Virus record (IMG/VR): IMGVR_UViG_3300027196_000008 | Span: 1-38,074 of that record | DNA length: 38,074 bases | Strand: one strand, 5' to 3' | From: a virus | Lineage: Duplodnaviria; Caudoviricetes | Shown: positions 11,206 to 38,074 of the stretch, one piece after another | Layout of the letters: the number at the start of each line of letters is the position of its first letter | Numbering within the stretch: the stretch's first letter is position 1 | Notes under the pieces: generated by a model | What the model was told of the DNA's origin: nothing | Database searches by the model: none | The model's input: the letters and a program-made list of their open reading frames with translations, nothing else | Translations under genes and position numbers: made by a program

Positions 11206-11523
11206 CTACCACTTTTCACGGTCTGCCCAGTAAGCAGCAGACATTTTACCTTTCTTTATGTTCCTAGCATGACGCGCTTTAAAACTTGCGCGTTTCTTTT
11301 TCATTGCTGCTGATTCTCCAGCTTTAGGTTTCCCTGCTGTTTTTGCTCCTTGTTCTCCAAAACGAATAGTTTTGATTTTGTCGCCTTCCTTCGCAACAAC
11401 AACATGGCTTTTCTTCGGGTGATTCGGTGTACGCTTGGGCTTGTTATAACCGCTTACTCCTGCTTTAGTTAAACGAGAATCTTTGTTTTTAGCCTTACCG
11501 CCTTTCTTGTAATCTTCTCTCAT
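11206..11523 (-). CDS. basic hypothetical protein (DUF5754-like pattern), last gene of the - arm
   Basis: KK..V......K.IRFG..G...R.SF.ARH...SAAYW....W pattern. N-terminal REDYKKGG motif. Confidence 0.75.
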   Translation of the reverse strand: MREDYKKGGKAKNKDSRLTKAGVSGYNKPKRTPNHPKKSHVVVAKEGDKIKTIRFGEQGAKTAGKPKAGESAAMKKKRASFKARHARNIKKGKMSAAYWADREKW

Positions 11524-11525
11524 AG

Positions 11526-11771
11526 CTATTTCTTCCTATATTTCCTTGTCTTTGCCGCTATCTTTTTTGGCTGCTTACTATGCTGCTTACCTTTTTTAGT
11601 ATCTTCTTTTTTCTTTTTAGAAGTTGCAGCATATTCCTTTTTAGTTAAAGCCTTAATAGCTTTTTCAGGTAAGTATCGCTCACCTGTTTTTGCGCTAGGC
11701 TTACCAGACTTTGTACGCCACTTCTGTTCAGTCCATTTCTTTAAAGACTTCTGTGATTTTTTAAGTGCCAT
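11526..11771 (-). CDS. Lys-rich protein resembling the C-terminal half of DUF5872 proteins
   Basis: Q.SL.KWT.Q.W.T, RYLP.KA and KGKQ motifs. Confidence 0.75.
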   Translation of the reverse strand: MALKKSQKSLKKWTEQKWRTKSGKPSAKTGERYLPEKAIKALTKKEYAATSKKKKEDTKKGKQHSKQPKKIAAKTRKYRKK

Positions 11772-11914
11772 TACTTATGTACCTTCTGCACTGAGAAGTT
11801 AGCTTCCAGACTTGCTCCTTTATGCTTAACAAACTTTCCGGTATGCTTCATTAATTTAAACGAACCGTTCTTTTGTTTCATCCAATGATGTCCTGCTGGT
11901 GCTTTTACTTTCAT
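11771..11914 (-). CDS. small basic hypothetical protein, 47 aa (MKVKAPAGHHWMKQKNGSFKLMKH...VQKVHK)
   Basis: Read manually. GGAGG Shine-Dalgarno, ATGA overlap with the upstream gene and TAATG overlap with the downstream gene. Confidence 0.75.
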   Translation of the reverse strand: MKVKAPAGHHWMKQKNGSFKLMKHTGKFVKHKGASLEANFSVQKVHK

Positions 11915-12096
11915 TTGTAACCTCCTCCTGCTGCTTTATATTCTTTAGCTAACATTTGGGCTTTCCGCGCAGACCACTGACCCGCTTTACCGCCCTTAGT
12001 CCCTGCTTTAATCTTTTCAAATAAGCGTTTACGCATAGCGGGCTTAGTGTAGTTTTCTGCTTTATTTACAGTAGATTTCTTTTTCTTTGCTGCCAT
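11911..12096 (-). CDS. basic protein resembling the N-terminal half of DUF5872 proteins
   Basis: YTKP..R...KGG.AGQWSARKAQ..A.EYK..GGGY signature. Confidence 0.78.
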   Translation of the reverse strand: MAAKKKKSTVNKAENYTKPAMRKRLFEKIKAGTKGGKAGQWSARKAQMLAKEYKAAGGGYK

Positions 12097-12097
12097 G

Positions 12098-12475
12098 CTA
12101 TTTCTCCCTTTGAACGCCTTTAGATTTTTCTACGGTACGCATTGCACCTAAACCTAACATACCCATTAGCACACTTGTAAGTAATGAGCTATCAACAGGC
12201 GGGACAGAAAACCAAATGCCCAGTATTGGAGCTAAGATAGTAGAATAGAGTAAGGCTAGTCCACATATCCAACCTATTGCGGGTCGCCAACCTGCCACAA
12301 ATAAACTCTTATGTGCCGCTTCAGTCTTATTAACTTCAAGCTGGCCTTTCGCAAGCTCTTGCGCGTGTCTTTCAGCCATTGTAGTAAGTTCAAATGCGAT
12401 GGCATTCTTCTTGTCTTTATCTTCTATAAATTTATCTAGTAGTCCGGTAACTGGCCCAATCAATGATTGCAACAT
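12098..12475 (-). CDS. holin, 3TM gene-transfer-release type (DUF3154-like)
   Basis: QLEVNK.EA.H.S.FVAGWRPAIGW and MLGLG.MRT.EK..G motifs with hydrophobic segments. Adjacent to the endolysin. Confidence 0.85.
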   Translation of the reverse strand: MLQSLIGPVTGLLDKFIEDKDKKNAIAFELTTMAERHAQELAKGQLEVNKTEAAHKSLFVAGWRPAIGWICGLALLYSTILAPILGIWFSVPPVDSSLLTSVLMGMLGLGAMRTVEKSKGVQREK

Positions 12476-12487
12476 AAGTCTATCTCC

Positions 12488-12853
12488 TTAATAACACCAC
12501 ATAACAGGTTTATGATCATCTCGCATATCAACGTGTACAAAACCTTTAGCTATGCCTATGCCTACAAAACCCAAAGCACAGGCATGACGCACAATCTGCA
12601 TACGCTGCCTACCTCCATTTACTGCAATATCAGCGGCAATCCCCCTAGTGTGCGTTCCACCACCATTGGGTTTATGTCTTTCCGCGCTGTGTTGAAGATC
12701 TCTATAGCCGCTTGTAACAATAAAAGGAAAACCACAAACATCTCTCAAGTGGTCTAGCTTTCTAATAAAGGCAACATCCATTTCATTCTTGCCTGTTTCT
12801 TGGCAATTAAAATCACTTAGTTTAAAATACTTAAACTTTATTTCTTCAGTCAT
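12488..12853 (-). CDS. endolysin, peptidase M15A family
   Basis: VTSGYR, H..G.AADI and G......FVHVD.R zinc-binding motifs. Confidence 0.9.
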   Translation of the reverse strand: MTEEIKFKYFKLSDFNCQETGKNEMDVAFIRKLDHLRDVCGFPFIVTSGYRDLQHSAERHKPNGGGTHTRGIAADIAVNGGRQRMQIVRHACALGFVGIGIAKGFVHVDMRDDHKPVMWCY

Positions 12854-15800
12854 TAGCTGTCCTTGCTCCTTTTAAATTGTGTAATGTTTCTTCTACGAGT
12901 CCACCTGATACAAACATTTTCAAACCTTTAAGAATATCTTCTCGCATCTTATCAGTTATTTTAAGAGTGGGAAGTTCTACAGTTTTATCTCCTTGATTAT
13001 ATTTAATCATCTCAATATCAACATCGTATTTGTCAGCAAAGTCTCGTTTCCATATTTTTTGTAAAGTACCATCATAAAAATCTATGTACTTCTGACCACC
13101 CATCTTCATGGTCATTGGTTGTTTAAGTGCATATTCTCCTGCATCATCAGGGGTTGAAGCAAGTAATTTTTCTGCATTTTCTTTTCCAAGAACTTTAGGT
13201 AGTTTTTGAACAGCTTCTTCAAAAGTATCAAAGACAACTAAAAAATCATTAAACTCGTCGTCTGTATTAACACCTTGTATTGCCCAACCTCTAGGCTCTC
13301 CAGTTTTTATGTCTTGTTTTTTAAACAATAAAGCTTCTTTAATATTACCTATCTTATTATTTCTTATAGCTTGTAGTTGACCAGTAGTCAAAGCAACTTG
13401 ATCATAGCCTTCTTCTGCTGCTACTTTCATAGCTTGGCGTAGACCCGCAGCACCCCATTGCTTTCCTTGTTTAAGCGGAAGTTCTGGAGTTTTGGTTTCA
13501 AGTTTCATTATTAAATCTAAAAATTCATCTTCTTTAGCAAGCATGTCGTCTGCTGAAGCTAAATCTTTATTAACCTCACCTATTCGGGTTTGAAGAGTAT
13601 CTCGTCTTTGTATATATTCTGCTTCTGTTATAATTTCATCATCTATCATATCGTCTAGTTGATCAAGCTTATCTACAAGGTTCTCTTTTTCATTACTCAG
13701 TTTAATAAAATCGTTTGTATAAGTTATTTCTTTTTTCTTTTCCTTTAATAGTTTTTCATCTTCTATAGTATAGTAGCCTTTCCCGCTTTTTCCAGTTGCT
13801 CTTTGATGTGCGTCTGATTGTATTTCATCAACCAATAAAGTTGTATTAAACGCATCATCAGTTTGCTGTATATCAGATAAACGAACATGAGCAAATTGAT
13901 TTTTAGCTTGCGGATGGTGATCCTCATATTCAAAATCAAGATCTACTTTCTTATATTTGTCTGGAATAGAAAGTACAAGTTCACGATAATTTTGAGTATT
14001 CTCACCTTCAAATGAATAATTTAAATGTTCAGGCTGAACTTTAAAATCTGCATCTGGTCTATCAACATCAGAGCGTCCTACTGCAACATCAAAGTCAAAA
14101 TCATTTTCTTTAAAAAATTCCTGAACTTCTTCTTTTGTTACCTTCTTATCGTTAGCAAACTTTTCATTAGCTTTTGTCCACTTTAATTCTTCATCAGTAA
14201 CATCTGGATCTTTTTTAATTTCATTTAAAAATGCTTGACCTTCTCTGGGTTTAGAACCTTCAAGTTTCTGAGAAGCTTTTTCTGCGGCACTATACAGCCC
14301 TGATGATTTTTTAGGCGCAAAAAACATCTTGGCAACAAGACTGCCTTTACTATACCCACGCATTCGATCACTTTCTGAGGGTGTCATGTACATAGCTTCT
14401 TTGTCAGCAATGAGTTTATCTATCTGAGCTTCTGCTTCTTTAAAAGTATTAGCCTTAATAGTAGCCCCTAGATTGTTGTTGTGTTGATCCATTGGCTTAT
14501 CTAAACGTCTAAGGCTCAAGTTTTCGCGGAAGTTTGCAGCCTTCAATGCTAGATCAGGATTCTCTGCTCTTTGAGTAATCCAACCTAAAGCAAGGTGACG
14601 GGCTGCATCTCCTTTACCGTCTAGTTCTTCAGATTTGCTATAACGCTTGTCTTGACTTTTAGCCCACTCAAGATCTTCTTTAGAGATGCCTACAAGGTTA
14701 GCCACCATCTCACCGCCACTGCTTTTACGTACTCTTCCTCCAGCAGCCATAACTAAAGATCTAATAGGATCGGACTCTTCTAAATAAGCTGCACCTGCCT
14801 CTAAATTATATGGCATCCCTGTAACCTTATTAATTCTATCTGAAGGGTTTTCAGGAGCATTAGGCACAAGCTTGTCTACGACACCGCCCATAACTTTTTG
14901 AAGTCTTTCTTGATCGCCCTTCTTTTCACCTGTAATAGGATCGTTAAGCCTTATATCCCATAAATCTAGGTATACTTGTTCAAGCTCTTCTGAAACATTA
15001 ATTGCTTGCTTTGTGCTTGTTACATTAGGAGTTTTTTCTTCTAACGCCACAGTGCTTTTTTGCGGTGGTCTGCTAGGTTTAAAATATCCCATGCTTATAG
15101 CGGCTAAATCTTTTCTGCTCAGTCCGTTTTCTAAAGCAAAACTATACATTTCATCTTCATCTATAAGATATTCAGCAGCTTTTAAAGTTCTATAAAGCTC
15201 TTTATAAGACTTTAAACGAACTTTTTGTTGTTGCTTATATCTTTTAATAACTTCATCAGAATTGCGTTCAAAGTTTATTCCTGTAGTTATAGACAAACTA
15301 GAGTCTCTTTTAAAATCAGAAACAGCAAACTTAATAGCACTTTCAATATCTACTTCTGTAAACTTTACTCCTGTCATGTTTGCAACAAGTTCAGCAGGTT
15401 TAGATTTAGTCTTACCTGTAGTTCTATTTGGTTTTTCATTCATCGTGTCTATTAAACTTTTAATACTTAACGCAGATCCGGGAACTAAAGTTTTTCCTAA
15501 ATGTTGCAAAACATTTGCAGATTTTTCTGCAACAGTAAGACCGGGGGTAAATATTTCTTTACCGTTAGGAGTTCTTCCATCTTCATTTAAAGCAGCTAAA
15601 GTTACATCTGTAATAGCAGACGTTAAAATAGCTTCATCAATATATGGTTTAAAAAAGCTATAAGCGAAAGCCGCAGTAGAATCTAAAACTTTTATTTCAA
15701 ACTCGTCTTCGTTTATTTCTCCTTTACTCCATGCGTAAGCCGCAGAACGTAAAGGATCTTTTAAAGCACTGTATGAGTCAATGTATTGCGTATCGTTGGT

Positions 15801-18554
15801 GTATATCTTACCATCTATTTTTACAATATTGCGCGGAGCAGTATTTGACCAAGGAGTTTCGCTCAATATTGCAATAGCCTTCTGTTCTTCTTCGTTAAAC
15901 CCTGCTAGTTTTGCAGACATGTCGGCTACTTGACCAAACGCCATTGTTGTAACAGTAAATCCTGCCATTCTTTTTAATCCTCTGTCTCGTATAAGAGGAT
16001 TAGTAGATTGCATTTCTTTAGCTGATTGCCTAGCAATGTGGGCAGAGGTTCTAATTATTTCTGCTGGGAATGAGAAAAAACTACCGACAGGAAGCTGCCT
16101 TAAAGATTTTACGCCTTTAGGAACACGATCATAGTTTGGCATTGTATTACGAACAATGTTTGCAGCTTGCTCTTCTAAAACGTCTGGGGCCACATCAGGA
16201 TATGCTTTTTGAAGCAAGCTTAACTCTTGATTAAAATAATTTATTTTATAAAAATCATCTGTTGCAACATAAAGATTGTCAAAAAACTCGCGTCTATTTT
16301 TAGTTAAACCTATCTTATCTAAACTAGAACCTACTTTCTTTTGAAAGCCGTCTATATTTGTTTCATATCCAGATTCTAAAATTGCTCTAAACTCATTTAC
16401 TCTGACGTTAGTATTAATAATTCCTAGTCGTAAGTATTTTTCATACGTGTTATTAAATGATTTATCTCCACGTTTTAAAATAGAATCTAGTAAAACTTTT
16501 CTAGTTTCGTTTGCTCCTCCACCAAAAGGATTTACTCCATTAGCAAAACCAAACTGCATACCGCCTGTCAAGTTACGAATATGTGTCATGTGGCTGTAAA
16601 CAGTTTTTAATTTTTGCGCTTGTCCTTTAAAACTTAAAAACTCTTTATAATATTTTGAACCCCCGTTTGTAAAAAAGTGAGAAGTGTTATTTTGAAGCTC
16701 GTCAAATATTTCAGGAGTTGTAAATTGACCATCTAGTTTAGAGTTAGTCCCTGCTATTTTTGTGTCGTACCCTTCTGGACGAGGCTCACCTTTTCTAAAT
16801 ATATATCCACCAGAATGACCTAGCTGCTCTAAGTTGTTGTAAAACTTTGTACTGTTTACAAGGTTTGTCATTTTTGAAACAGTTAAGATAATATTTTCAG
16901 AAGGTTGTTCAACTTCGCCCATCAACCTTCTAATTTCTAAAGGTATAGTTTCTTGTTTCTTTAGTATATCTTTATTTATCTTTTTAAGATTACTAAAATA
17001 ATCAGAAAATTCTGCTTGGTCGCCCTGCTTTAAAATTTCTTTTACAGTATCAACAGCTTCTTGATAAGCAAAAGCTTCAGAAATATCTGGCTTGTTGTCT
17101 AAAATATTTCTATAAATATAATCTGTTGCATCTTTTTGAACTTCAGGAGTTGGAACATATCCCGAATCTTCAAAAAGACGGTAAGATCTTCGGATATATT
17201 CTCCTACGTTTTCTTGAATTGTTTCTTTTAAAGAATCACTAACAGAAGTAGAACCTATAAGTTCATTAGACATATCATCAATTAATTCTCTAGCATTCAA
17301 AAACTCTTCTGCTTGAACATCAGTTAAATTATATTTGTCTGCAAGATCAATAATCTTATCTTCTTTAGTGCCTTTTAACCATTTTAAATCTTGAGTAAAA
17401 AGTTTATTTATAGTTTCAATTACTTCTTCTTGATCAGTAGACTCAGCCATTTCATCTATAGATTGTTGAAGTCTTAACGCAATGTTCTCTGCTTTAGCAA
17501 TAGTTTGTCTTTTAGCATATTCTGAATCTTCAAAAGCGTTATATCCTTTAGGCGTAAAATATCCTCGCGTTGTAAAAAATCTATTCACGAATCTGTGTAA
17601 CTTGCTAGAATTCTGCAATGCAACCTGTGCTGAACCTTCAGGAGTTTCAGTAAGTTGTACATCTGTTACCTGACTTTGTTGCTTAAACTGTGTATTAATT
17701 TTAGCTTCTTCTAAAACTTCTAACATTACATCAGCTTTTTCTTCTAACTCTAATTGTTCTACAGGCTTACCATATAGCTGCTTACTTTTCCTACTTAAAT
17801 ATTTAACACTTTCAATAGCTCCAATACCAAAATATTTTAATATTTTAGGAGTTGTTAGTACAATATCAATAGCACCGCCAATGACTGCACCTTCCAGCAC
17901 CACTTTACTTTTTGCTTTTAACTTAGAATCATTTTCATTTGAAGACATATACTCTATAATAACATTAGATTGAGTCTCTGGAAAATATTCACCAACTACA
18001 TCAGCAAGTGTTCCGTCTTCAACATCACTTAAAACAGCATCAGTAACTGCACCTGCTGCTAGGCCCCTTATATACTTTGATCCGCGTTCACCTAATTCTT
18101 TATATACTTTTGTGCCTCCAATTACATAAGGAACAAACTCTGCAACAGCCCCTGCTGTAGTTTCAGTAGGTTTAACATCTCCTTCAGGCGTATATATATC
18201 ATCAGTTTTATTAAATGCGTTTAAAAGCTGATCAAAACCACTTATAGGATTATCACGAAAGAATTTTTTAAATGCTTGCTGTTGTGCTTCTAACTCTGAT
18301 GATTTACTGTCCAAACCTAAAAGTTGTTTTACATCTTCTGTTAAAATTCTTGCACCGTACAAAACATTTAAAGGCTCTAAATTTTCTCTTGTGTCTGCAA
18401 GCACTCTTAAAATATCTGTTCCGACTCCTGTTGATTTTGCATCTTCTTCAGGTTCGGGTACAGCAATAGGATCTGCTAAAGTTTCAGATTCTTTAGCAGC
18501 TTCTATTGCTTTAGCGGCTGCTTCTTCGGCTGTGTTTTTTACATCAACATCCAT
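12846..18554 (-). CDS. large internal virion/DNA-ejection protein with appended C-terminal domains (1902 aa)
   Basis: Size and position as the last internal-protein gene. Helical body. C-terminal modules DAARH...MDQHNNNLG and AHVR.SD...LVDEIQSD.HQ. Confidence 0.75.
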   Translation of the reverse strand: MDVDVKNTAEEAAAKAIEAAKESETLADPIAVPEPEEDAKSTGVGTDILRVLADTRENLEPLNVLYGARILTEDVKQLLGLDSKSSELEAQQQAFKKFFRDNPISGFDQLLNAFNKTDDIYTPEGDVKPTETTAGAVAEFVPYVIGGTKVYKELGERGSKYIRGLAAGAVTDAVLSDVEDGTLADVVGEYFPETQSNVIIEYMSSNENDSKLKAKSKVVLEGAVIGGAIDIVLTTPKILKYFGIGAIESVKYLSRKSKQLYGKPVEQLELEEKADVMLEVLEEAKINTQFKQQSQVTDVQLTETPEGSAQVALQNSSKLHRFVNRFFTTRGYFTPKGYNAFEDSEYAKRQTIAKAENIALRLQQSIDEMAESTDQEEVIETINKLFTQDLKWLKGTKEDKIIDLADKYNLTDVQAEEFLNARELIDDMSNELIGSTSVSDSLKETIQENVGEYIRRSYRLFEDSGYVPTPEVQKDATDYIYRNILDNKPDISEAFAYQEAVDTVKEILKQGDQAEFSDYFSNLKKINKDILKKQETIPLEIRRLMGEVEQPSENIILTVSKMTNLVNSTKFYNNLEQLGHSGGYIFRKGEPRPEGYDTKIAGTNSKLDGQFTTPEIFDELQNNTSHFFTNGGSKYYKEFLSFKGQAQKLKTVYSHMTHIRNLTGGMQFGFANGVNPFGGGANETRKVLLDSILKRGDKSFNNTYEKYLRLGIINTNVRVNEFRAILESGYETNIDGFQKKVGSSLDKIGLTKNRREFFDNLYVATDDFYKINYFNQELSLLQKAYPDVAPDVLEEQAANIVRNTMPNYDRVPKGVKSLRQLPVGSFFSFPAEIIRTSAHIARQSAKEMQSTNPLIRDRGLKRMAGFTVTTMAFGQVADMSAKLAGFNEEEQKAIAILSETPWSNTAPRNIVKIDGKIYTNDTQYIDSYSALKDPLRSAAYAWSKGEINEDEFEIKVLDSTAAFAYSFFKPYIDEAILTSAITDVTLAALNEDGRTPNGKEIFTPGLTVAEKSANVLQHLGKTLVPGSALSIKSLIDTMNEKPNRTTGKTKSKPAELVANMTGVKFTEVDIESAIKFAVSDFKRDSSLSITTGINFERNSDEVIKRYKQQQKVRLKSYKELYRTLKAAEYLIDEDEMYSFALENGLSRKDLAAISMGYFKPSRPPQKSTVALEEKTPNVTSTKQAINVSEELEQVYLDLWDIRLNDPITGEKKGDQERLQKVMGGVVDKLVPNAPENPSDRINKVTGMPYNLEAGAAYLEESDPIRSLVMAAGGRVRKSSGGEMVANLVGISKEDLEWAKSQDKRYSKSEELDGKGDAARHLALGWITQRAENPDLALKAANFRENLSLRRLDKPMDQHNNNLGATIKANTFKEAEAQIDKLIADKEAMYMTPSESDRMRGYSKGSLVAKMFFAPKKSSGLYSAAEKASQKLEGSKPREGQAFLNEIKKDPDVTDEELKWTKANEKFANDKKVTKEEVQEFFKENDFDFDVAVGRSDVDRPDADFKVQPEHLNYSFEGENTQNYRELVLSIPDKYKKVDLDFEYEDHHPQAKNQFAHVRLSDIQQTDDAFNTTLLVDEIQSDAHQRATGKSGKGYYTIEDEKLLKEKKKEITYTNDFIKLSNEKENLVDKLDQLDDMIDDEIITEAEYIQRRDTLQTRIGEVNKDLASADDMLAKEDEFLDLIMKLETKTPELPLKQGKQWGAAGLRQAMKVAAEEGYDQVALTTGQLQAIRNNKIGNIKEALLFKKQDIKTGEPRGWAIQGVNTDDEFNDFLVVFDTFEEAVQKLPKVLGKENAEKLLASTPDDAGEYALKQPMTMKMGGQKYIDFYDGTLQKIWKRDFADKYDVDIEMIKYNQGDKTVELPTLKITDKMREDILKGLKMFVSGGLVEETLHNLKGARTAND

Positions 18555-18567
18555 AACTTATCCTTTC

Positions 18568-19824: not shown

Positions 19825-19836
19825 TATTATATCCTT

Positions 19837-20439: not shown

Positions 20440-20441
20440 TA

Positions 20442-21590
20442 TTAGCCTACTCCTCTCATACTTTGACCGTAGTTATATATAGCTGCTGTGTGTCCATAAG
20501 GAGAAGCATTCATGTAGTTAGTGTTGTCCATGTAAGCATTTAAATTAACATCTCCTGCATAATCACCTGATCCGATAGACAGTGATGTAGGCATAGAAGC
20601 AACTGAAGCTACATTTGTAGTATAATTAACATCAGGAATCCCTCCTCCTGCTTTTTGCCCTGCGGTTGTTACTGCTGTACTTACAAATTTAGAAGGTGCA
20701 TCTGTAAGAGCTTCTCCAAGTTTTACTCTAGCGTCACCCGCCTTTTCTACTACAAAGTCACTAGCTTTGCTAAGTAAACTTTTTGGTTCAGTAGCTACAT
20801 TAGTTACTCCATCAGCAACGGTTGACATTTGTGCTGTATTAGAAGCTATTGTCCCATCCAAGCCTCGAGACATGTTTTCTACACCTGTTAAGTTCGGCCC
20901 TGTTGCTAAAGCTTTAGCTTTTGCCATAGAATCTTCAAGAACTATATCGGGTGTTTCAACAAGTTTACCTGTAAATTCATTAGTGACCGAATCCATTTCG
21001 GCTGACACATTAAGATCAGGAACTAAAGCATCTCGCTTAACTTTTAATTCATCTAAGTATTTAGATACGCTTGCGTGTTTACCTGTAAGTGTGTCCATGC
21101 TAAACAGGTCTTGACCTTTTGATAAGAGATCAGTACCTGCATTAGAAACTGTGTCCATAACAGAGTTAAAGCCTTTACCTGCTACATTCCAACCATTTCC
21201 TTTATTAATACCTAAAGCACCTGTAAAGTTTTTTATAGGATTAGCTAAACCAAGTTGATTTGCGGCAGCACCAACAACTTCACCAACAACATTTGTAACG
21301 CCTTTTGTAATACTACTAAAAACATTACCTACTTTAGTACCTATATTTAGTGCGGCATTAATAAAGTTTCCTGCCGCAGTAGCTACTGTGCCGCCAGTGC
21401 CTATTAAAGCACCAGCAAACTTTCCGAACATTGAGCCTATTCCCGGCATTAAAAGCCCTAAACCAATTTGACCAATAATGCCTAGCTTCCCCATAAATTT
21501 ACCAACAGACTTAAAAGCACTTTTAATACCTTTGCCTATTTTCTTTACTACTTTTTTAACGCCTTTAAAAAGTTTTGAAATAAGTCCCAT
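20442..21590 (-). CDS. putative ejection/DNA-transfer protein, Gly-rich (382 aa)
   Basis: Cationic amphipathic N-terminus followed by Gly/Ala-rich hydrophobic segments. GAGGA Shine-Dalgarno. Confidence 0.6.
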   Translation of the reverse strand: MGLISKLFKGVKKVVKKIGKGIKSAFKSVGKFMGKLGIIGQIGLGLLMPGIGSMFGKFAGALIGTGGTVATAAGNFINAALNIGTKVGNVFSSITKGVTNVVGEVVGAAANQLGLANPIKNFTGALGINKGNGWNVAGKGFNSVMDTVSNAGTDLLSKGQDLFSMDTLTGKHASVSKYLDELKVKRDALVPDLNVSAEMDSVTNEFTGKLVETPDIVLEDSMAKAKALATGPNLTGVENMSRGLDGTIASNTAQMSTVADGVTNVATEPKSLLSKASDFVVEKAGDARVKLGEALTDAPSKFVSTAVTTAGQKAGGGIPDVNYTTNVASVASMPTSLSIGSGDYAGDVNLNAYMDNTNYMNASPYGHTAAIYNYGQSMRGVG

Positions 21591-21603
21591 TTTGTACTAT
21601 CCT

Positions 21604-24291
21604 CTATATAATCCCATTAACCATAGAAACTAAAGAACTGCTTGATGTTCTACTGTCTTTAGTTGCTCCTGCTTCATTACCAATAGCTGTAGCATAAAGC
21701 TGTGTCTTTCTGTTTTCTTCATTTTCATATGATTGTCTAATATAAGATGCTTCATCACGATATTGCTGCCAGATTTGAGCTTGCTCTAACGCTGTTAAGT
21801 TATATGCGTTTTGAACATTCTGTTGATTAGCTGCATTAATAGCCGCAGTTTCTGCGGTGTTAGCAGATCTACGCCATGCAATATTAGATTGTTCAATTGC
21901 TTGAGCATTTTGAGCATTCCAAGTATCACGCTGTAATTCAACCTGTTCATTGTATTTAGCAACATCTACTTCTAATTGAGCAGTAATTTGTTCAGCTTGT
22001 AGTTCATTCCCTGCTTCTATAGCTGCTTGTCTATTAGTTTCAGCAGTGTTGAACTGTGCCATAGCATTAGATTGAGTTGAATTAAACTGTTCCATAGAGC
22101 TTGCTAGACTTGCCATAAACTGATTAGTTTGATTTTCAGACGTAGCATTAAACTGTAAAGAAGCATTTGCAGCAGCCGCATCAGATAACAAACGCTGTTG
22201 CTGCTGTTGCTGATCTAAAACAGTTGCTTGCTGTTCATTGTTTAAGTTAGCCATGTCCATACTTAAAAAGTTTTGAGCGTTAGTAATAGCTAGTTTAGTA
22301 GCTTGGTCGGCTGTAGCCATATCCATTGCTGCAAGAGTTGTGGCATTCTGCATCGCTGCTTGTTGTGAAGCATTGAAGTCAGCCATAGTCATAGACTGCA
22401 TAAACTTACTGTTTGCTAATTCTACTTGCTGTTCAGCATTAAACTTATTTAAATCAACATTAGCAACCATTGCTGCATTTTGTACTGCCCGTTGTTGATC
22501 TACATTTAACTGAGCAAGCCCCATTGACTCTGCAATTTTACCTTGAGTTAAATTAGTTTGCAACGTAGCATTAAGATTAGCTAACTCAGTTTGTTGTTCT
22601 GCATTTAGATTATCAGCACTTGCTTGATTAAGTGCAGAAAGATTTGCAAGTCTTGTTTGTTGATCGTTGCTTAAATTTGCTAAATCCATTTGCTGTTTAA
22701 ACGCAGCATTCTTAGCTAAAAAGTCTGCGGCAGTTTGCATTTGAACTAAGCGTGTTTGTTGTTCCGCTGACATGTTTTCAGATGCACTAGCATTTAAGTA
22801 TGAAAGATTAGCAAGTTCTATTTGCTGTTCATTACCTAAATTTTGTGAATTTGTAGCTTGTTGATTCTGAACATTTAATACAGAAGCTTGCTGACGATTT
22901 TGCAAGTTTTGCATAGCAGTTTGTTGCTGTTGCTGTGCAGTAGTCATAACAGCGTCTTGTTTAAACTGGCTTTGCAGTGTAGCCATCTGCTGTGCCATCT
23001 GTGCTGTTTGAGATGATGCTGTTTGTTCATTAGCTAAATTAGCCAGCTTTAACTGCATGTCAGCCGTAGACTGTGCTAAGTTAGCTTGTTGCTCATTACT
23101 TAAATTTTGTGCTGCTCTAGTCTGAAGAGCTTGAGCATTGCTTTGAGCAATAGGCATAGCAGTTTGAATAATAGCATTAAATAACGAATCCCTTCCTACT
23201 GTTGATGAAGAAAGACCTCGTTTAGCAAGCATTGAGTTTACTTGTTGTACCGCTGGCCTAGCCCAAACAGGAACTTCTCCATCATCCATAGAAGCTAAAA
23301 GACCTTCCATTTGAGAAGATACTAAAGCTTCAGTTGGTAATGCTGCAATGGCTGCTTTAACTTCAACAGGCTGTGTATCTATAGCTGCTTCTACTGAGGC
23401 AGGGTCTTCAACAATAGCTGCTGTTATTTCTTTAGGAATGTTTCCTACGGCTGCAACCATTTCTGCTGCTGCACCTTTAGCGGCTTCGCCCGTAACGGCT
23501 CTTCTAGATGCAGCTTCAAAACCAACAGACTCAACAATTTTAGATGCTTCTCCTGATGAAACAGTATTATCTGTAATAGCATCGCGTTGTTTAAATTCTG
23601 CTTCTTTTGTAGGAGCAATGTCTGTAACTTTACCTGTAACAGCATCAACATATGCACCGTCACTAATTTCATAATCTTGAGCAGATGCTAAAGAAGCTTG
23701 TTCTTGCTCTGTGTCTCGTTGAGCAGCAGTAGCTCTTTCAGTTAATGTAGGCCCAGCAGCTTCAGCAATTGTTGATACTGTGCCTTGAGCAGCTTGAGTA
23801 GGTGCAGTAGCTTCAGCTTTTTGTGCTGTAAATGTAGAAGCTTCAACAGGTTGTACAGCTTCACCTAAAGTAACATCTCCTTGAGCAGCAGGAGCCATTG
23901 TAGGGGCTTGAACACCATCAGTAGTTACAGGTGTTCCTGCATCTAGTTGTTGAATTTCAGAACCTGTTGTAAAGCCTTGTTCAGCCGCAGATGCGCTAGG
24001 ATCTATAGCTGATTCAACACCTTTTTTTGCATCAAACGTTCTTACAAAACTATAGGGGCTACCACTAGGTCTTTTTAACTTTGGTGTAGGTGGCTTGCCT
24101 GTTGCAGTTTTTGCAGTTGTTGAAGTACTTCCACCACCTGTAGGCTGATTATGCGATCCAAGTTTTGGATTGTGTGGTTGCCAGCCCATACGCCCTGCAT
24201 AGTTATGTCCCCCACTATGATAAGCTGCTCTTTTAGCTTGAAGAGATTTTAATACTTTTTTAGTATTTCTTTTATTTCTTTTTTTGCTCAT
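21604..24291 (-). CDS. putative ejection/pilot protein with long Q/A/N-rich coiled coil (895 aa)
   Basis: Repeating [LF]-x-x-[ED]-Q-Q...L-A-N units over the C-terminal half. R-G-L-S-S-S segment typical of ejection proteins. Confidence 0.65.
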   Translation of the reverse strand: MSKKRNKRNTKKVLKSLQAKRAAYHSGGHNYAGRMGWQPHNPKLGSHNQPTGGGSTSTTAKTATGKPPTPKLKRPSGSPYSFVRTFDAKKGVESAIDPSASAAEQGFTTGSEIQQLDAGTPVTTDGVQAPTMAPAAQGDVTLGEAVQPVEASTFTAQKAEATAPTQAAQGTVSTIAEAAGPTLTERATAAQRDTEQEQASLASAQDYEISDGAYVDAVTGKVTDIAPTKEAEFKQRDAITDNTVSSGEASKIVESVGFEAASRRAVTGEAAKGAAAEMVAAVGNIPKEITAAIVEDPASVEAAIDTQPVEVKAAIAALPTEALVSSQMEGLLASMDDGEVPVWARPAVQQVNSMLAKRGLSSSTVGRDSLFNAIIQTAMPIAQSNAQALQTRAAQNLSNEQQANLAQSTADMQLKLANLANEQTASSQTAQMAQQMATLQSQFKQDAVMTTAQQQQQTAMQNLQNRQQASVLNVQNQQATNSQNLGNEQQIELANLSYLNASASENMSAEQQTRLVQMQTAADFLAKNAAFKQQMDLANLSNDQQTRLANLSALNQASADNLNAEQQTELANLNATLQTNLTQGKIAESMGLAQLNVDQQRAVQNAAMVANVDLNKFNAEQQVELANSKFMQSMTMADFNASQQAAMQNATTLAAMDMATADQATKLAITNAQNFLSMDMANLNNEQQATVLDQQQQQQRLLSDAAAANASLQFNATSENQTNQFMASLASSMEQFNSTQSNAMAQFNTAETNRQAAIEAGNELQAEQITAQLEVDVAKYNEQVELQRDTWNAQNAQAIEQSNIAWRRSANTAETAAINAANQQNVQNAYNLTALEQAQIWQQYRDEASYIRQSYENEENRKTQLYATAIGNEAGATKDSRTSSSSLVSMVNGII

Positions 24292-24293
24292 TA

Positions 24294-24473: not shown

Positions 24474-24477
24474 GTTA

Positions 24478-24918: not shown

Positions 24919-24936
24919 ATAGTTCCCCTTACTAAA

Positions 24937-25725
24937 TTATAAATTATATCTAGCATAAGCTTTAACAGGCCCATACTCTAAAGTGTCTTTGTTAAACACA
25001 AAGCCCCAGCACCATACAACGTCACAGTCCGTGTGTGTGGTTGGTGGTAATGGATACGACAATCCTTTATCAGCGCAAAACTCACGTATGAGCTTAGGTG
25101 TGGCGTATGCGTAGTAATCCACCCAGTCGCTAGTGGTTCCGTCCTGACTGTGAGTGGCGGCATAGAAGTTACCATCGTTGTATGGTAGGTCAGGAGTTTC
25201 ACCATCGTACAGTTTAAAAACTACTTTGAGCATTATTTCCTTAGTTTCAGAATCAAACTTGAAACCATGCCAATCCATAAGGTTTGTGGTTGGGTAAGAT
25301 GTTCCAAATTCAAGTAATAGCTTTTCACTAGGAACCTGTCCGAAGTTGTAGAAGCTCAAACCACCGTTAGCATATGGCTCCCTGTATGGGGTATACCTTC
25401 CTATGATATTGAACTCCCACCTTAACCAATCCTGATAGTCAGGAAAGCTCGCCTGTAGTTCTTCAGCCATCAATTGCGCCTCTGTCGTACCAGTAGAGTA
25501 GTCCTGACGAACTATCTGCTTGTCACAGTAGACATCATCTCTACATTGGACTGGTTTAAACTTGCTCAACGCTGTATGCAAAAGCGCGTCGTCAATAGCA
25601 AGCTGTACTTCAGCCTCAGTTCTGTTACCTATGGGTACTTCAATGTACAGATTTTCCTTAGCTACACAGGCGAACTCTGTATCTGATTCCATTTCGTCTG
25701 TTTTTTTTGTATATAATCTTTCCAT
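24937..25725 (-). CDS. hypothetical protein in the tail-fibre module (262 aa, acidic and aromatic-rich)
   Basis: TAATG coupling to the upstream gene and GGAG Shine-Dalgarno. No recognisable family. Confidence 0.7.
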   Translation of the reverse strand: MERLYTKKTDEMESDTEFACVAKENLYIEVPIGNRTEAEVQLAIDDALLHTALSKFKPVQCRDDVYCDKQIVRQDYSTGTTEAQLMAEELQASFPDYQDWLRWEFNIIGRYTPYREPYANGGLSFYNFGQVPSEKLLLEFGTSYPTTNLMDWHGFKFDSETKEIMLKVVFKLYDGETPDLPYNDGNFYAATHSQDGTTSDWVDYYAYATPKLIREFCADKGLSYPLPPTTHTDCDVVWCWGFVFNKDTLEYGPVKAYARYNL

Positions 25726-29290: not shown

Positions 29291-29294
29291 TTGG

Positions 29295-30896: not shown

Positions 30897-30897
30897 A

Positions 30898-31668
30898 TTA
30901 TACGAATCTCATTCGATCATCTTTAAAATACGCAGGAGTAGGCTCTAATAAATTAGACCTCATGCTACGCAAGCCTTTTTTGTAATCGTCTAATGCAAAC
31001 GCTGCTGCTTGTGGATTATCTTTAAATTGATGTATGTAATATCTAGCTCTTGATAATAAAACAGAACTGTATACTTCAGGAAAAACTAAAGTGTCTGTAG
31101 CACTCGATAGTTTTGTAGGAAGGCTCCATGCAAAAAACCAAATACGATAAACTTTATCTGGTATTGGACTTAATCCAAATTTTCTAGCATCTGGGCTTCT
31201 AGTAACAGCATTAGGAACGCCATAGTTTTGAGTGTTTGCATCATCTAAATTTTCAGAAACTCTCCGAAAATCTTTAAATTCTTCTGTGGTAATATAACGT
31301 AAATTACGCCCTTCAAAGGGAGCAGATTCACCGCTAACACCTACAGTTGTGAGATAAAAGTTATCCCAATCTATTGAACCATAATCAGTAGTAATAGAAC
31401 TACTTGCAGGTTTCAATTCATAATATCTTTGTCCGACTACTGTTTCTACATATACGTTTCCGTACATAGGATCTACATCACCGCTTTCAGTAACTGCTAA
31501 ATAAGGCCATTGCGGTTCTTCATTAATTATATCAAAGTACGCACGATTTACAGAATCTTTAACATGTTGTTGAACGCCAATAGAAGCAGCAAAATTTCCT
31601 GCTGTTAAAGGAACTTCGTTTAGTTCGCGGAGAAGCTCATTTGTTAAATCTAAATAACTTGTTGACAT
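30898..31668 (-). CDS. tail adaptor / tail tubular protein A-like
   Basis: YL.L.N..L..LNE, W-P-Y/F and P.PD..Y motifs. Positioned downstream of the capsid gene. Confidence 0.78.
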   Translation of the reverse strand: MSTSYLDLTNELLRELNEVPLTAGNFAASIGVQQHVKDSVNRAYFDIINEEPQWPYLAVTESGDVDPMYGNVYVETVVGQRYYELKPASSSITTDYGSIDWDNFYLTTVGVSGESAPFEGRNLRYITTEEFKDFRRVSENLDDANTQNYGVPNAVTRSPDARKFGLSPIPDKVYRIWFFAWSLPTKLSSATDTLVFPEVYSSVLLSRARYYIHQFKDNPQAAAFALDDYKKGLRSMRSNLLEPTPAYFKDDRMRFV

Positions 31669-31670
31669 AA

Positions 31671-31838
31671 TTACTGTGCCTTTGATTTAGTTTCATCTTT
31701 TCTAAAGATAGCATCATAGTTATCTTCATATTTTTTCTTATTTTCTTTTGTGTACCAACTTCCTGTATCGCCTAAAATCTTTCCAGTTTTTTTGCCTTTA
31801 ATCATTATAGGCTTTGCATTACTTCCAACTTGAGGCAT
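31671..31838 (-). CDS. small hypothetical protein, 55 aa (MPQVGSNAKP...KKKYEDNYDAIFRK...)
   Basis: Read manually. Strong AAGGAG Shine-Dalgarno. Fills the gap between the terminator and the adaptor gene. Confidence 0.75.
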   Translation of the reverse strand: MPQVGSNAKPIMIKGKKTGKILGDTGSWYTKENKKKYEDNYDAIFRKDETKSKAQ

Positions 31839-31850
31839 TTATTTCTCCTT

Positions 31851-31883
31851 AAAAAGTGCGGGGGCTTTTACACCCCCGACTTT
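31851..31883 (-). terminator. rho-independent terminator after the major capsid gene
   Basis: On the - strand: AAAGT-CGGGGG-TGTAAAAG-CCCCCG-CACTTTTT. Confidence 0.8.
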
Positions 31884-31893
31884 AATTTACAGC

Positions 31894-32868
31894 TTAGTCT
31901 ATACCGTAGAAGGCAGATACTAGAGCTTCAGGTCGTAGAACCTCTGCTCCAAATACATGCAGACCACGACAGATGTCACCAAAGCTATCTGGATCACGAA
32001 TGACCTCAGTGCTAGTGATAGTCTGTGCAGTTGCAGTAGAACTAACGTGACCAGCAAGGATCTTGCCAGCAGCGTTAGTAGTAGCTGCAATGTTGTTAGA
32101 CTTATACATGTCAAAGCCACGCAGCTTGCCTGAAGAAACCAGACCGTTGCGGATAGAGCCTTGACCAGCGTTAAAGTCTACAGACATCAACTTAGAGCTT
32201 GCTTGTGAAAGCTGCTCGTAGAAGCTAGGCGGTGCTAGGAACCAACGACCTTCTTCTGGCACGTTTTGCTCGTCAAGTAGACGGGCCATGTGAGCCATAA
32301 CATCCAAAGGATCGTGTTCGCCAGAACCTTGACCAATATCCAAGTTACCAGTACCATCAAAAGTACCGCCAGCTAGGTCAGTTGTGCTGTCAGAACCAAG
32401 GACATGGTTAGGAGTAGCAGCCGATACACCAGCAAACATCTCAGCAATTACAGCAGAATCGAAAGCATCACGCAGAGCGTAAGCAGCCGATGAAGATGCA
32501 ACTTCTTTGAAGTTTACATGAGACATAGAAGTTTCGATATCGTCAACGATAAACTTAAAAGCGTTAGCGTTGTCAACAACCAAATTAACTTCTTGGTCAG
32601 TTAGCTTAGTAGCTGTAGTGTCGCTGCCACGGGTGTAAGCAGAAACAGAAATTACAGGCTCTTTGATGATCTTTACAGAGTCACCGAAAGCAGTAATTTC
32701 ACCAGCATAGTCAGTGTTAGTGATTGCTTCACATACAGAAGCTTTACGGAAGAAGTTTAGAACCTTCTTTGAGTAAACTGCTGGAAGGAAGTACGAGTTA
32801 GTTTGGCCTGTGACACTGTTTGCAAAGTTAGCATTAGTATCTGTGCCGGGTTCAAAATATTGAGCCAT
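31894..32868 (-). CDS. major capsid protein (HK97 fold)
   Basis: F.P..YS.K....F, TN.DY.GEI...GD.V.I, LDEQ.VP..GR, and R....FGD..RGLH.FG motifs. Strong codon bias and AGGAGA Shine-Dalgarno. Confidence 0.92.
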   Translation of the reverse strand: MAQYFEPGTDTNANFANSVTGQTNSYFLPAVYSKKVLNFFRKASVCEAITNTDYAGEITAFGDSVKIIKEPVISVSAYTRGSDTTATKLTDQEVNLVVDNANAFKFIVDDIETSMSHVNFKEVASSSAAYALRDAFDSAVIAEMFAGVSAATPNHVLGSDSTTDLAGGTFDGTGNLDIGQGSGEHDPLDVMAHMARLLDEQNVPEEGRWFLAPPSFYEQLSQASSKLMSVDFNAGQGSIRNGLVSSGKLRGFDMYKSNNIAATTNAAGKILAGHVSSTATAQTITSTEVIRDPDSFGDICRGLHVFGAEVLRPEALVSAFYGID

Positions 32869-32898
32869 GTTATATTCTCCTAAAAAGACATTAAATTA

Positions 32899-33753
32899 TT
32901 ATGGGATTACTCTGCCTTCCATAATGGCTTGATCAATTTCACTTTCATATTTGTCAAATTGAGCCATCGAAAGTTTAGAGATTTCCCGTTGAGTCCACAC
33001 CTTCGGTTGTTTTGCATCCACTGCATTTGTTTTAGTAGAAACAAAATCAGCCGCTGATGAAGTAGGTTGCGACTTTTTGTTCTTAGCAGACTTAGTAGAA
33101 CTGAGTCCTGTCTCCAACTTATAAAGATCAATTGCTTTAATGGCTAAAGGTACATTATCTGGGTTGTTATAGATCCAGCCTTGAATTTGTTCTGGCTGTT
33201 CTTTGGCCCATTCGTGAAAACGATCATCGCCTCTTATTTCGTCAAAATCGGGATGCCTATCATGTAGGGCTGTTTCAGCTTCTCTACGTGTTATAGCAGC
33301 TTCTCTTTCTTCGATAACAGAAAGCTTTGATTTTATCTGCTCTAGTTGTTGTTCACTTTGTAGGTGAGCAACACTTTCAACAGTTTCATATAGATCAGGA
33401 TATTGGCTTTTAAATTGTTCAAGATCTTCAAGTGACTTAGGCGGTGCGTAAGCAGGTTGTTGCTCCATAGCCGCTGCTTGTAACTCTAGTTCTCGTTGTT
33501 TAAAATCTGAAATCTTTTGATCATAATGCTTTTTTAAATCATCATAGCGTTTTTTATAGTTAGTTCTTTTTGCTGATGTTTCTTCAACTTCTTCAGGGGC
33601 CGCGCTGCGGGTAGCCTGTGTTTCAGATCTATCATCATAAAACAGCCCATCTGCACTTCCTCTACTTGGAGCATCTGGTACATGCCAGTCCTTTCGTGAA
33701 TTGTACGGATTAGGTGCTTGTTCTTCAGTTATACTTTCAATTGCTTCGGACAT
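32899..33753 (-). CDS. capsid scaffolding protein
   Basis: YKKRYDDLK.H coiled coil, HPDF, F..W...QP and C-terminal EI..A..EGR. Directly upstream of the capsid gene. ATG 33753 lies 10 nt after AGGAG. Confidence 0.85.
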   Translation of the reverse strand: MSEAIESITEEQAPNPYNSRKDWHVPDAPSRGSADGLFYDDRSETQATRSAAPEEVEETSAKRTNYKKRYDDLKKHYDQKISDFKQRELELQAAAMEQQPAYAPPKSLEDLEQFKSQYPDLYETVESVAHLQSEQQLEQIKSKLSVIEEREAAITRREAETALHDRHPDFDEIRGDDRFHEWAKEQPEQIQGWIYNNPDNVPLAIKAIDLYKLETGLSSTKSAKNKKSQPTSSAADFVSTKTNAVDAKQPKVWTQREISKLSMAQFDKYESEIDQAIMEGRVIP

Positions 33754-33771
33754 AATCGTCACACTCCTTTT

Positions 33772-33887
33772 GGGGCTTGCTAGTCTTTCAAGGTGGCTTC
33801 GTTGTTCGCGTTTACAACAAAGGGTCTTGATACTTCAAGGTGGCCTCTAGGTTTATAAAGTGATAAGGGGTCTAAAATAGAGTGGCC
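33772..33887 (-). promoter_or_regulatory. three tandem GCCAC-[hairpin]-CCC elements in the scaffold 5' leader
   Basis: Copies at 33867-33887, 33822-33845 and 33772-33797. Flanks are conserved, while the stems differ in sequence but remain self-complementary. Confidence 0.65.
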
Positions 33888-35504
33888 TTATCGTGGGGTT
33901 ACACTTGGCATACGGTTAGAACTAATCATTTGTCGCTTAATTTCTTCTTCCGTAAGTTCATCCTCAGTAATCCTATTAGACATTTCACCATTTCCCATAG
34001 GATTATAAGCAATACCACCAAATGCTTTTTTCATTAAACCACCGTCATAAGCACGTTCAGCATCGTCCATCATAGTTTGTAGCTGTTCCGCGCCTAGTTG
34101 ATCAGTAGCCTTTCTGGTGAAAACAAATTCACCATCCGATAACCTTGCGGGTATCGAATCTGATACTCCAGTTCCGGGGCCATCTACTTCCCCTTCACCT
34201 GAGAATTCTCCTGCAACATCCATAACTTGATCAAAGATGCTGCTTAGACGTTCATCTTGTTCTAAAACGTCCATTAAATAATCTTGATCGTCTTCTTCTA
34301 AAGACTCGTCAAGTATAAATTGCAAATAGTTATTTTCCATTTCAGCGTCAGGAAGCTGTGACTTTTTAGCCGCTTCTTTTTCTTCTTCTGGAATATTGTC
34401 ATAAGTATCTTGTATTTCTGGGGGCAGTAGCATTGAACCACCTTCAGCTTTAGCTTCTCTTCCTTTAGCTACATCTGTAGTATATTCGCTACCTTCAAAC
34501 ATAAAAGTATTTTCTCCTGCATTGTGAGCTTCGCTAAATGCACTTTCAAACTTTTCACGTTTGCTTTCAGTTAAACTTTCATATACATCTTTAACTGCTT
34601 CTGGGCCTTCTAGTAACAACATTGTTACACCTGCTGTACCCGCAGTATTTTTAGCCATATCACTACGATAAGTTTTTTGTTTCCGTACTAAAGGTTTTGT
34701 AGCTTCTTGGCTTTCAGTTGCATTATCTTTAAGACTTGCAATAATTGAATCTAAATCAGTTTTACCGCCACCACCTGTAGCATAGTTTTCAAAAAACCGT
34801 AAACTCTTTTCGTCTTCTTTATTTTCTTTAGTTAGCTTTTTAATTAAATTAGGATACGTTTCTTTTGTTTCAACTACAGCAGTATCTATTTGTTTGCGTG
34901 TTGGCTTCTTGCCTTGCTTAACATTCTTACGCAACATGCTAACAATTAACTCGCCAACTCTACCGCCCTTGCTATATTCTTCACGCTCTGGTGGTACTAA
35001 CATAGAGCCACCTTCAGCTTTAACTACTCTAGGGCCAGTAGATTCTAAACGATCTAAGGCAGGGCCATATAGATCTACATCTGCTTCATTTACATTCTCT
35101 TTAAACTCTTTAAGACCTTTAGCGTCTAATGTATTTAAATACTGAGAAACTTCGGAAGCACCTGTAAATAGTTCTAAACTGTTTGCTGCTTCTTTAGGTG
35201 TCATAGAAGTCATCATACCTTCTTGAGACTCAGCTATTTCAACGCCATAGTCATCACCTAACATTTTTAAACGCTCTTTTTCAGGAAGAGCATCCATTAG
35301 ATCTATATATTCATCATCACTTAAAGTATCTAAATACTGAGGATTATCAGCTAGACGTTCTTCTAAAGCTTCGCGTATACGTTCAGCATCTACTTTATTC
35401 TTTTTTGTCGTTGATGCTTTAGCACCTGCTTCAGCAACTTCTTTATCAGAAAGTTTAGATAACAAACTTAAAACTTTCTTAGCTGACTTTTTAGGTATTT
35501 TCAT
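33888..35504 (-). CDS. head-module protein with repeated GG motifs and a C-terminal tape-measure-like GPGTG.SDSIPA.LS.GEFV domain (538 aa)
   Basis: Motifs read directly from the translation. GAGGA Shine-Dalgarno. Located between portal and scaffold. Confidence 0.7.
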   Translation of the reverse strand: MKIPKKSAKKVLSLLSKLSDKEVAEAGAKASTTKKNKVDAERIREALEERLADNPQYLDTLSDDEYIDLMDALPEKERLKMLGDDYGVEIAESQEGMMTSMTPKEAANSLELFTGASEVSQYLNTLDAKGLKEFKENVNEADVDLYGPALDRLESTGPRVVKAEGGSMLVPPEREEYSKGGRVGELIVSMLRKNVKQGKKPTRKQIDTAVVETKETYPNLIKKLTKENKEDEKSLRFFENYATGGGGKTDLDSIIASLKDNATESQEATKPLVRKQKTYRSDMAKNTAGTAGVTMLLLEGPEAVKDVYESLTESKREKFESAFSEAHNAGENTFMFEGSEYTTDVAKGREAKAEGGSMLLPPEIQDTYDNIPEEEKEAAKKSQLPDAEMENNYLQFILDESLEEDDQDYLMDVLEQDERLSSIFDQVMDVAGEFSGEGEVDGPGTGVSDSIPARLSDGEFVFTRKATDQLGAEQLQTMMDDAERAYDGGLMKKAFGGIAYNPMGNGEMSNRITEDELTEEEIKRQMISSNRMPSVTPR

Positions 35505-38072: not shown

Positions 38073-38074
38073 TC
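37951..38074. repeat. direct repeat, 43 nt x2, 81-nt period
   Basis: 37951-37993 versus 38032-38074, 40/43 identical. In frame, giving a 27-aa period. Confidence 0.9.

Follow-up and report, generated by a model that had tools for sequence, protein, structure and literature searches.

The head-maturation proteases of T4 (gp21, acting with the capsid targeting sequence) and of the phiKZ-type phages (gp175) trim many internal proteins at one short motif, and the leaders are removed after loading. They are recognized serine proteases that cut after Glu and process the capsid and scaffold proteins as well, and the T4 capsid targeting sequence is a single N-terminal leader motif. The adenovirus protease, a clan CE cysteine protease, cuts after GG at (M/I/L)-X-G-G↓X sites (here and below the arrow marks the bond). 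By analogy, the closest known process to the one discussed here is the maturation of tape-measure proteins in T5 and lambda. The T5 tape measure pb2 is reported to be cut after R1127 (PMC10038345), and lambda gpH loses about 14 kDa, with the site and the catalyst stated as unknown and the question open since 1974 (PMC12617516). In this study we analyzed a tag motif, R-x-x-[YK]-x-x-G-G, in a 38,074-nucleotide viral contig (IMG/VR record IMGVR_UViG_3300027196_000008), the whole of which is called the window below. The tag is real and conserved, not a product of chance. It follows basic leaders, precedes short tails, and marks the module joints of presumed cargo proteins, but not of shell or tail proteins. 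The tag system would be a new variant of virion-protein maturation.

The window is a two-arm phage contig of 38 kb with replication genes on the plus strand and late genes on the minus strand. Its capsid and portal proteins are 59% and 62% identical to those of the Pelagibacter phage HTVC115P, and therefore by sequence it is an HTVC103P-like marine short-tailed phage. The HTVC103P-like group is described as podoviruses, and phages of the HTVC103P and HMO-2011 types are ranked with the most abundant groups in the sea (bioRxiv 2019.12.14.876532).

A preliminary description of the window had reported seven exact copies of the motif in four late genes. All seven are in frame at the positions given there, one of which, approximate until now, could be made exact (Table 1). 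An eighth copy, absent from that description, lies in a 262-amino acid (aa) open reading frame (ORF) that has no divergent homolog among the loci discussed below, and may be a chance occurrence. The five variants quoted with the exact copies (MRGYSKGS, LKMFVSGG, LVMAAGG, MKKAFGG, and NYATGG) were also located, and the carriers, described there as non-homologous, show no BLASTP similarity among themselves at E<0.05. Codons vary between the copies. Plain shuffles of the minus-arm proteins yielded a mean of 0.17 exact copies, and shuffles with GG held fixed 0.41; eight copies were reached in 0/2000 in either case. When all patterns of the same shape were searched, which corrects for the post-hoc choice of this one, the observed score was reached in none of 200 shuffles. 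RVVKAEGGSML and REAKAEGGSML in the 538-aa protein look like a single duplication; counting it once leaves seven copies and still 0/200 shuffles, narrowly (8.44 versus a shuffled maximum of 8.33). The plus arm contains no exact copy, as had been stated, but the resulting enrichment (8 versus 0) is not significant alone (p=0.065 by residues, 0.18 by GG sites). The ERLKTFGG string of the ribonucleotide reductase (RNR), noted as the closest plus-arm match, does exist, but it occurs in the RNR of HMO-2011 too and is unrelated to the tag.

The distribution of the motif in relatives was analyzed in 160 viral loci for which the 538- and 895-aa proteins served as bait, after removal of any protein with 90% identity or more to the window; these loci are mutually related, so that the counts are not independent events. 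The exact motif was found 67 times in relatives of the 538-aa protein, versus 0.76 expected from composition (34 of 68 proteins), 31 times versus 0.38 in the 895 family (29 of 75 proteins), and 20 times versus 2.1 in the 1902 family (15 of 42 proteins). In the same loci it is absent from 47 portals, 57 capsids, 57 scaffolds, 67 adaptors, 76 homologs of the 533-aa protein, and the 382-, 200-, and 418-aa families. In relatives, tags are restricted to small basic proteins and three families of presumed cargo. An internal or ejection role of the 895- and 1902-aa proteins is presumed from their size, position, and analogy; no family name supports this. The proposal of a common signal in the preliminary description is supported, for virion-internal proteins, by conservation and by the absence from shell and tail proteins.

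The 538 family was sampled through 146 cluster representatives, whose variable N-terminal parts contain 362 distinct GG contexts; 30% of these fit the exact pattern. Side chains around GG are strongly preferred (R 7.9x at -6; K 3.3x and Y 5.5x at -3), with Arg at -6 in 41% of the contexts, a lineage preference and not a requirement. The general form of the tag is [K/R/Y/F/M]↓[small]-x-G-G. It is very improbable that the motif has no reader and is only a flexible hinge or left over from the shuffling of modules. Turns are often formed by Gly-Gly, the two tags in the folded fragment sit in low-confidence AlphaFold2 stretches, and some copies arose by duplication; such an origin is opposed by the side-chain preferences, by the differing codons, by the near-absence from Gly-rich fibers (one copy among 68 proteins with 634 GG sites), and by the loss of tags together with the cassette described below.

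The placement of copies at N-termini, C-termini, and apparent domain joints, pointed out in the window, recurs in relatives. In the 895 family, a basic leader opens 52 of 62 distinct N-termini, and a loosened tag pattern, set after inspection, matches within the first 45 residues in 46 of the 62, versus none in nine other late families. The 382-aa family (window 20442-21590, minus strand) has a basic N-terminus in 41/51 proteins and a tag in 0/51, so that a basic leader is not always tag-linked. In the 1902 family, the tag closes the core and additional modules are strung on at tags. The first post-core tag is followed by a conserved connector of ~45 residues (window 14736-14882, minus strand), present in 22 of 34 complete proteins and forming the end of many short family members. 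The 105-aa module is fused to large proteins in 12 relatives (11 distinct joints), always behind A-K-G-G; two of its three stand-alone relatives have no tag, which is found only in the one near-identical to the window.

Relatives also encode micro-proteins of 40-110 aa composed of several tags. Those of loci L259 (570-785), L260 (106-282), L067 (12811-13146), and L313 (738-902), of HTVC115P (gp73), and of HTVC103P (gp75) lie near capsid or scaffold genes and combine 2-4 tags with Met/Lys-rich spacers; the 55-aa ORF of the window at 31671-31838 contains no tags. An exception to the late-only pattern is an early-arm 86-aa protein (L081, 564-824, plus strand; HTVC115P gp18) ending with the high-scoring tag RFKKETGG. 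Two candidate explanations were set aside. A free N-terminal A-x-G-G as a directly encoded ligand was rejected, given an M-x-x-G-G start in only 1/894 late-strand N-termini, and a KVLxxL helix as the general partner of the tag is minor, being present in only 7/34 C-termini of the 1902 family. Neither the motif nor a protease role of the cassette is described in any paper returned by a literature search covering few subscription journals, and the main text of the polyvalent-protein paper (PMC5512222) does not contain "GG motif", "glycine", or "tape measure".

The T5 cut lies within a string of the same kind, F-V-P-R↓A-E-G-G. The computed masses of the two pb2 products (121.68 and 9.702 kDa) equal the trypsin-free intact masses of 121,683 and 9,702 (PMC11937500); therefore the cut after R1127 is upheld against the V1148 estimate. 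R-A-x-G-G is kept in 9/10 T5-like tape-measure ends among those listed. The window strings K↓AEGG (twice), Y↓ATGG, K↓AFGG, and Y↓SKGG fit the T5-type site, and some window tags have H, V, or K at P1'. As is presumed for the window proteins, pb2 is a virion protein that is later ejected; it shares with them a basic↓A-x-G-G string in this register, with a G-E pair within about 15 residues downstream; unlike them, it has one site in a tail protein, versus many sites on head cargo, and lacks Arg at -6. By analogy, the bond in the tags is predicted to lie ahead of the GG pair, with two residues between it and the first Gly, and cutting in this register, by whatever agent, is probable. Of encapsidation and cleavage, which had been offered as alternatives, it is cleavage that gains support from T5.

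A candidate reader of the tags, absent from the preliminary description, is the cassette of ~65 residues in the C-terminal unit of the 538-aa protein. This cassette follows an acidic helical domain (about residues 357-432), and many tape measures, lambda gpH included, have a homolog of it near their C-terminus. A profile of window relatives only matches the tape measures of Douge (1.7e-8), JBD30 (0.0018), and lambda (0.012). A wider profile matches Douge at 2e-28 and JBD30 at 6e-13, its lambda match being circular because a lambda-identical row is included. PHROG scans also gave tape-measure matches. The core in the window reads G-P-G-T-G-V-S-D-S-I-P-A-R-L-S-D-G-E-F-V, and G458, E459, and V461 are invariant across 119 alignment rows. 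Tape-measure cassettes open, and usually close, with x-A-x-G-G. The GG of the opening is present in 61/61 tape-measure-type rows versus 0/47 podophage-type rows (11 of the 119 are unclassified), and in the window the opening is altered to F↓S-G-E-G, with AYDGG and KAFGG at the close and two helices. The gene is not a tail tape measure, as it sits between the portal and scaffold genes and its closest cultured relatives are podoviruses; the cassette gene has this position in 6/6 cassette-bearing genomes. Prohead proteases are usually encoded at this position, as are lambda C and T5.150.

Lambda gpH (733-782), the JBD30 gp46 "hook" (1022-1066), and Douge gp16 (two copies) thus share with the window the homologous core, flanked in them by x-A-x-G-G on both sides. 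Unlike these, the window cassette belongs to a podophage and to a non-tail protein at the portal-scaffold locus, its opening is altered, and motif copies occur on other proteins. A comparable "hook" was predicted for JBD30, where the authors also raised the idea of a nearby cut (PMC11445458). The lambda cassette lies within the gpH piece known to be removed, and the register predicts a cut at F733↓A734, giving 79.8 and 12.5 kDa, with another site possible at Y778↓A779. Both cassettes of the Douge tape measure (PDB 8zdo chain S; 960-1028 and 1411-1472) are far from the C-terminus and predict more than one cut in one tape measure. In HMO-2011 and CRP-1 (L083, 38772-41060; L363, 37643-39790), the cassette is N-terminal in a portal-adjacent protein and its first half is different. 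Cassettes also occur in bacterial assemblies, where their carriers bear no resemblance to tape measures: in ORFs of ~590 aa the cassette is close to the N-terminus (L107, L109), and elsewhere it is found on short ORFs (L091, L097, L100, L122, L123).

The other parallel is the crAss001 cargo protein C1 (gp45), whose ordered portal-bound domain (Pfam PF25725) starts at residue 425 (PMC10172136). This residue is the Ala of A-F-G-G, in the same register as the T5 cut, and among PF25725 relatives GG is present at the start of the C1 domain in 43 of 50 proteins with enough upstream sequence (70 of 120 are unscored). Like the window proteins, C1 is rich in x-A-x-G-G; its ordered domain (425-552) begins at Ala, and its G-E pair is aligned to that of the window cassette as the best column match of HHalign. 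The domain is larger, and homology is non-significant. Comparison by language-model features placed C1 as the nearest named cluster (0.82-0.84, under the reliable range) and provides a lead only. Cross-HMM (hidden Markov model) tests of the window cassette against T5 and crAss C1 gave no link, and a tblastn match in cyanophage S-RIM14 lacks the motif. As no significant profile link joins the window to the T5 or crAss cassettes, both anchors are analogies.

Based on these observations, we suggest a scheme in which an internal core forms at the portal from the 538-aa protein, whose acidic domain binds the basic leaders of the cargo and so collects it. The tags would then be cut in the T5 register, as T5 and crAss001 suggest, and the cuts would trim leaders, split fused modules, and break up the N-terminal part of the 538-aa protein itself. 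At the weakest step, the cassette, probably oligomeric, would catalyze the cut with the invariant Glu459 and Asp449/Ser456, or be required for it. Tape-measure cassettes would act on their own opening motif, and podophage cassettes on other proteins because their own opening motif is altered. That the tags are maturation cuts read by the cassette protein has, in our view, slightly less than an even chance, and that the cassette itself is the catalyst is doubtful. A still broader and equally tentative reading makes the cassette an undescribed x↓A-x-G-G peptidase, acting in cis in tape measures and in trans on polyprotein cargo in podophages, the abundant marine podophages having relocated it to where prohead proteases are encoded, inactivated its self-site, and used it to process a modular polyprotein. 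If true, this would name the bond in lambda gpH and its catalytic residue (E755), reveal the code by which HTVC103P- and HMO-2011-type phages process their injected proteins, and make mature cargo products predictable from sequence.

Several facts weigh against this scheme. All cuts in the window phage and in related podophages are predicted ones, and our literature search found no virion proteomics for this group. P1 and P1' residues are highly variable, and a cut would take only 5 residues off the 105-aa protein and 7 off the 61-aa protein. The second copy in T5 pb2, R-A-L-G-G at residue 138, is uncut, and therefore the string alone is insufficient; an older study, quoted by PMC11937520 in disputing the site, had placed the T5 cut at V1148. 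For lambda, the predicted pieces miss the reported sizes (~78 and ~14 kDa) by 1.5-2 kDa. HHalign E values for the window cassette are 0.23-0.39 against T5 (a shuffled-median score, with a thin 8-sequence T5 profile) and 0.17-0.73 against crAss C1, the G-E column being aligned each time. The crAss001 authors report no cleavage and read C1 as a single chain possibly spanning both resolved parts (PMC10172136). The cassette is small and poorly folded in AlphaFold2: the cassette model, of low confidence (pLDDT about 49 across the first 30 model residues), consists of a short hairpin with two helices, and both models (a 538-aa protein fragment and the cassette) show helices with no confident core. 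Fold searches against solved structures gave no match (best Z 2.8 for the cassette), and one among viral models returned only uncharacterized or tape-measure relatives, by which a new fold is not shown. The 538-aa protein has no protease match in Pfam (to E 10), PHROGs, or NCBIfam. Among candidate catalytic residues there is no conserved His; Ser456 is invariant in alignment A5 but is His in lambda, and Lys465 is conserved in the podophage subfamily only.

Cleavage by a phage protease was proposed in the preliminary description; no known protease family is encoded in the window. The sole peptidase matches among its 38 ORFs are an M15 endolysin and an S74 fiber chaperone, no clan CE cysteine protease is among them, and no protease gene was recognized in the window or in the upstream part of the near-identical contig L001, which was read by eye, with three of its ORFs scanned. 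The tags could instead be cut by a host protease or another phage protein, with the cassette only capturing the new A-x-G-G end or anchoring at the portal. The T5 cut is real, yet no catalyst of it is known, the cassette is very small and has no recognizable catalytic set, and the title of a 1973 paper, present in a reference list, speaks of host involvement in T5 tail cleavage. We consider this improbable, as no other protease was recognized in the window or in that upstream part of L001 and as Pelagibacter phages with the cassette (HTVC115P, HTVC103P) differ in tags from the one without it (HTVC033P), a difference that a host enzyme alone would not predict.

This difference was found by scoring ten genomes that share the portal family. 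The viral loci served to train the scoring matrix, and the threshold, set at the 99th percentile of 644 non-cargo GG sites, misses RAAYHSGG and LVMAAGG of the window. Of the nine public genomes, eight were covered partially, over 32-50 kb that in each case included the portal-to-cargo block; a cassette of very high divergence could escape detection. Cassette and tags co-occur in this small sample. Outside the cassette gene, cassette-bearing genomes have 7 (window), 10 (HTVC115P), 4 (HTVC103P), 3 (HMO-2011), 5 (CRP-1), and 6 (ctYwJ313) tags, and cassette-less genomes have 1 (HTVC033P), 2 (phiM6), 2 (CHOED), and 0 (MQM1), near background. CHOED and MQM1 have no large gene at the portal-scaffold locus, and in none of the four phages without the cassette does the counterpart of the 895-aa protein have the basic leader. 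A rank test gives p=0.005 with kinship ignored; as a point against the scheme, the pattern amounts to only two changes on the portal tree (36/500 label shuffles are as low) in partial genomes.

The same co-occurrence would be expected if the tags stayed uncut and served for docking to the cassette protein at the portal, so as to load the cargo or set the order of its ejection. Terminal tags 2-4 residues from the C-terminus or near the start, micro-proteins consisting of 2-4 tags, the portal-bound crAss C1 domain with its language-model lead, and the N-terminal packaging signal of phage P1 DarB (PMC9024508) all agree with docking. We nevertheless hold it to be unlikely, if a realistic competitor: the sole mapped case of the string, in T5, is a cut, a tag stands at every fused-module joint although one per chain would suffice for loading, and some stand-alone forms lack it.

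Compared with the head-maturation systems, the window differs from the T4/phiKZ type in that its capsid and scaffold are untagged and no such protease was found, and from the T4 capsid targeting sequence in that tags occur at N-termini, C-termini, and internal joints. Adenovirus sites resemble the tags as a hydrophobic-x-G-G string on basic core proteins; in the window the string is one residue longer and the predicted bond lies ahead of it.

Table 1. Positions of tags, their carriers, and neighboring genes in the window
Feature	Positions	Strand	Basis or remarks
538-aa protein between portal and scaffold genes	33888..35504	-	variable tag-rich N-terminal part, acidic helical domain, cassette
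Tag RVVK↓AEGG, predicted bond K162↓A163, 538-aa protein	35007..35030	-	exact copy
Tag REEY↓SKGG, predicted bond Y177↓S178, 538-aa protein	34962..34985	-	exact copy
Variant tag NY↓ATGG, predicted bond Y241↓A242, 538-aa protein	34770..34787	-	variant
Tag REAK↓AEGG, predicted bond K352↓A353, directly ahead of conserved C-terminal unit	34437..34460	-	exact copy
Tape-measure-type cassette, residues 433-497, candidate tag reader	34014..34208	-	profile homology
MKKAFGG, 538-aa protein	34014..34034	-	variant
895-aa presumed internal/ejection protein, basic N-terminal leader ending in tag	21604..24291	-	
Tag RAAY↓HSGG, predicted bond Y24↓H25, closes basic leader of 895-aa protein	24208..24231	-	exact copy
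1902-aa presumed ejection protein: core about 1-1216, then tag-joined modules, including DUF6973-like 1300-1383	12846..18554	-	
Tag RLQK↓VMGG, end of core of 1902-aa protein	14883..14906	-	exact copy
Tandem tags LVM↓AAGG (14736-14756) and RVRK↓SSGG (14712-14735), 1902-aa protein	14712..14756	-	variant and exact copy
Variant MRGY↓SKGS, 1902-aa protein	14340..14363	-	one relative ends here with MRGYAKGGKVL
C-terminal variant LKMF↓VSGG, then 17-residue tail, 1902-aa protein	12900..12923	-	variant
105-aa Lys-rich protein, N-terminal tag REDY↓KKGG at 11497-11520	11206..11523	-	exact copy
61-aa Lys-rich protein, C-terminal variant KEYK↓AAGG at 11923-11946	11911..12096	-	variant
Eighth copy REPY↓ANGG, 262-aa ORF	25360..25383	-	exact copy
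Portal, tag-free context	35563..37746	-	family scans, locus comparison
Presumed scaffold and major capsid genes, tag-free context	31894..33762	-	scans, locus comparison
3' part of 152-156-aa gene upstream of portal	37758..38074	-	gene start lies beyond window end

The plus arm contains primase-helicase, PolA, and class II RNR genes. On the minus arm, the order is portal, 538-aa protein, presumed scaffold, capsid, adaptor, 533-aa tail protein, and fiber, followed by the 895-, 382-, 200-, 418-, and 1902-aa genes, lysis genes, and four small Lys-rich ORFs. The latter (105, 81, 47, and 61 aa) are adjacent at the end of the late arm (11206-12096, minus strand), carry tags in two cases only, and possibly encode DNA-condensing core proteins. 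The 152-156-aa gene upstream of the portal has a full copy in contig L001 (7274-7744), where the start of the protein bears the tag KLKY↓NNGG. A family search with this protein gave no credible match; by eye, it resembles a small beta-barrel, with repeats that alternate like strands and close with an aliphatic residue, and it has no signal peptide. Finally, a 76-aa ORF (35508-35738, minus strand) overlaps the end of the portal gene by 176 bases in a different frame, and relatives have small genes there.

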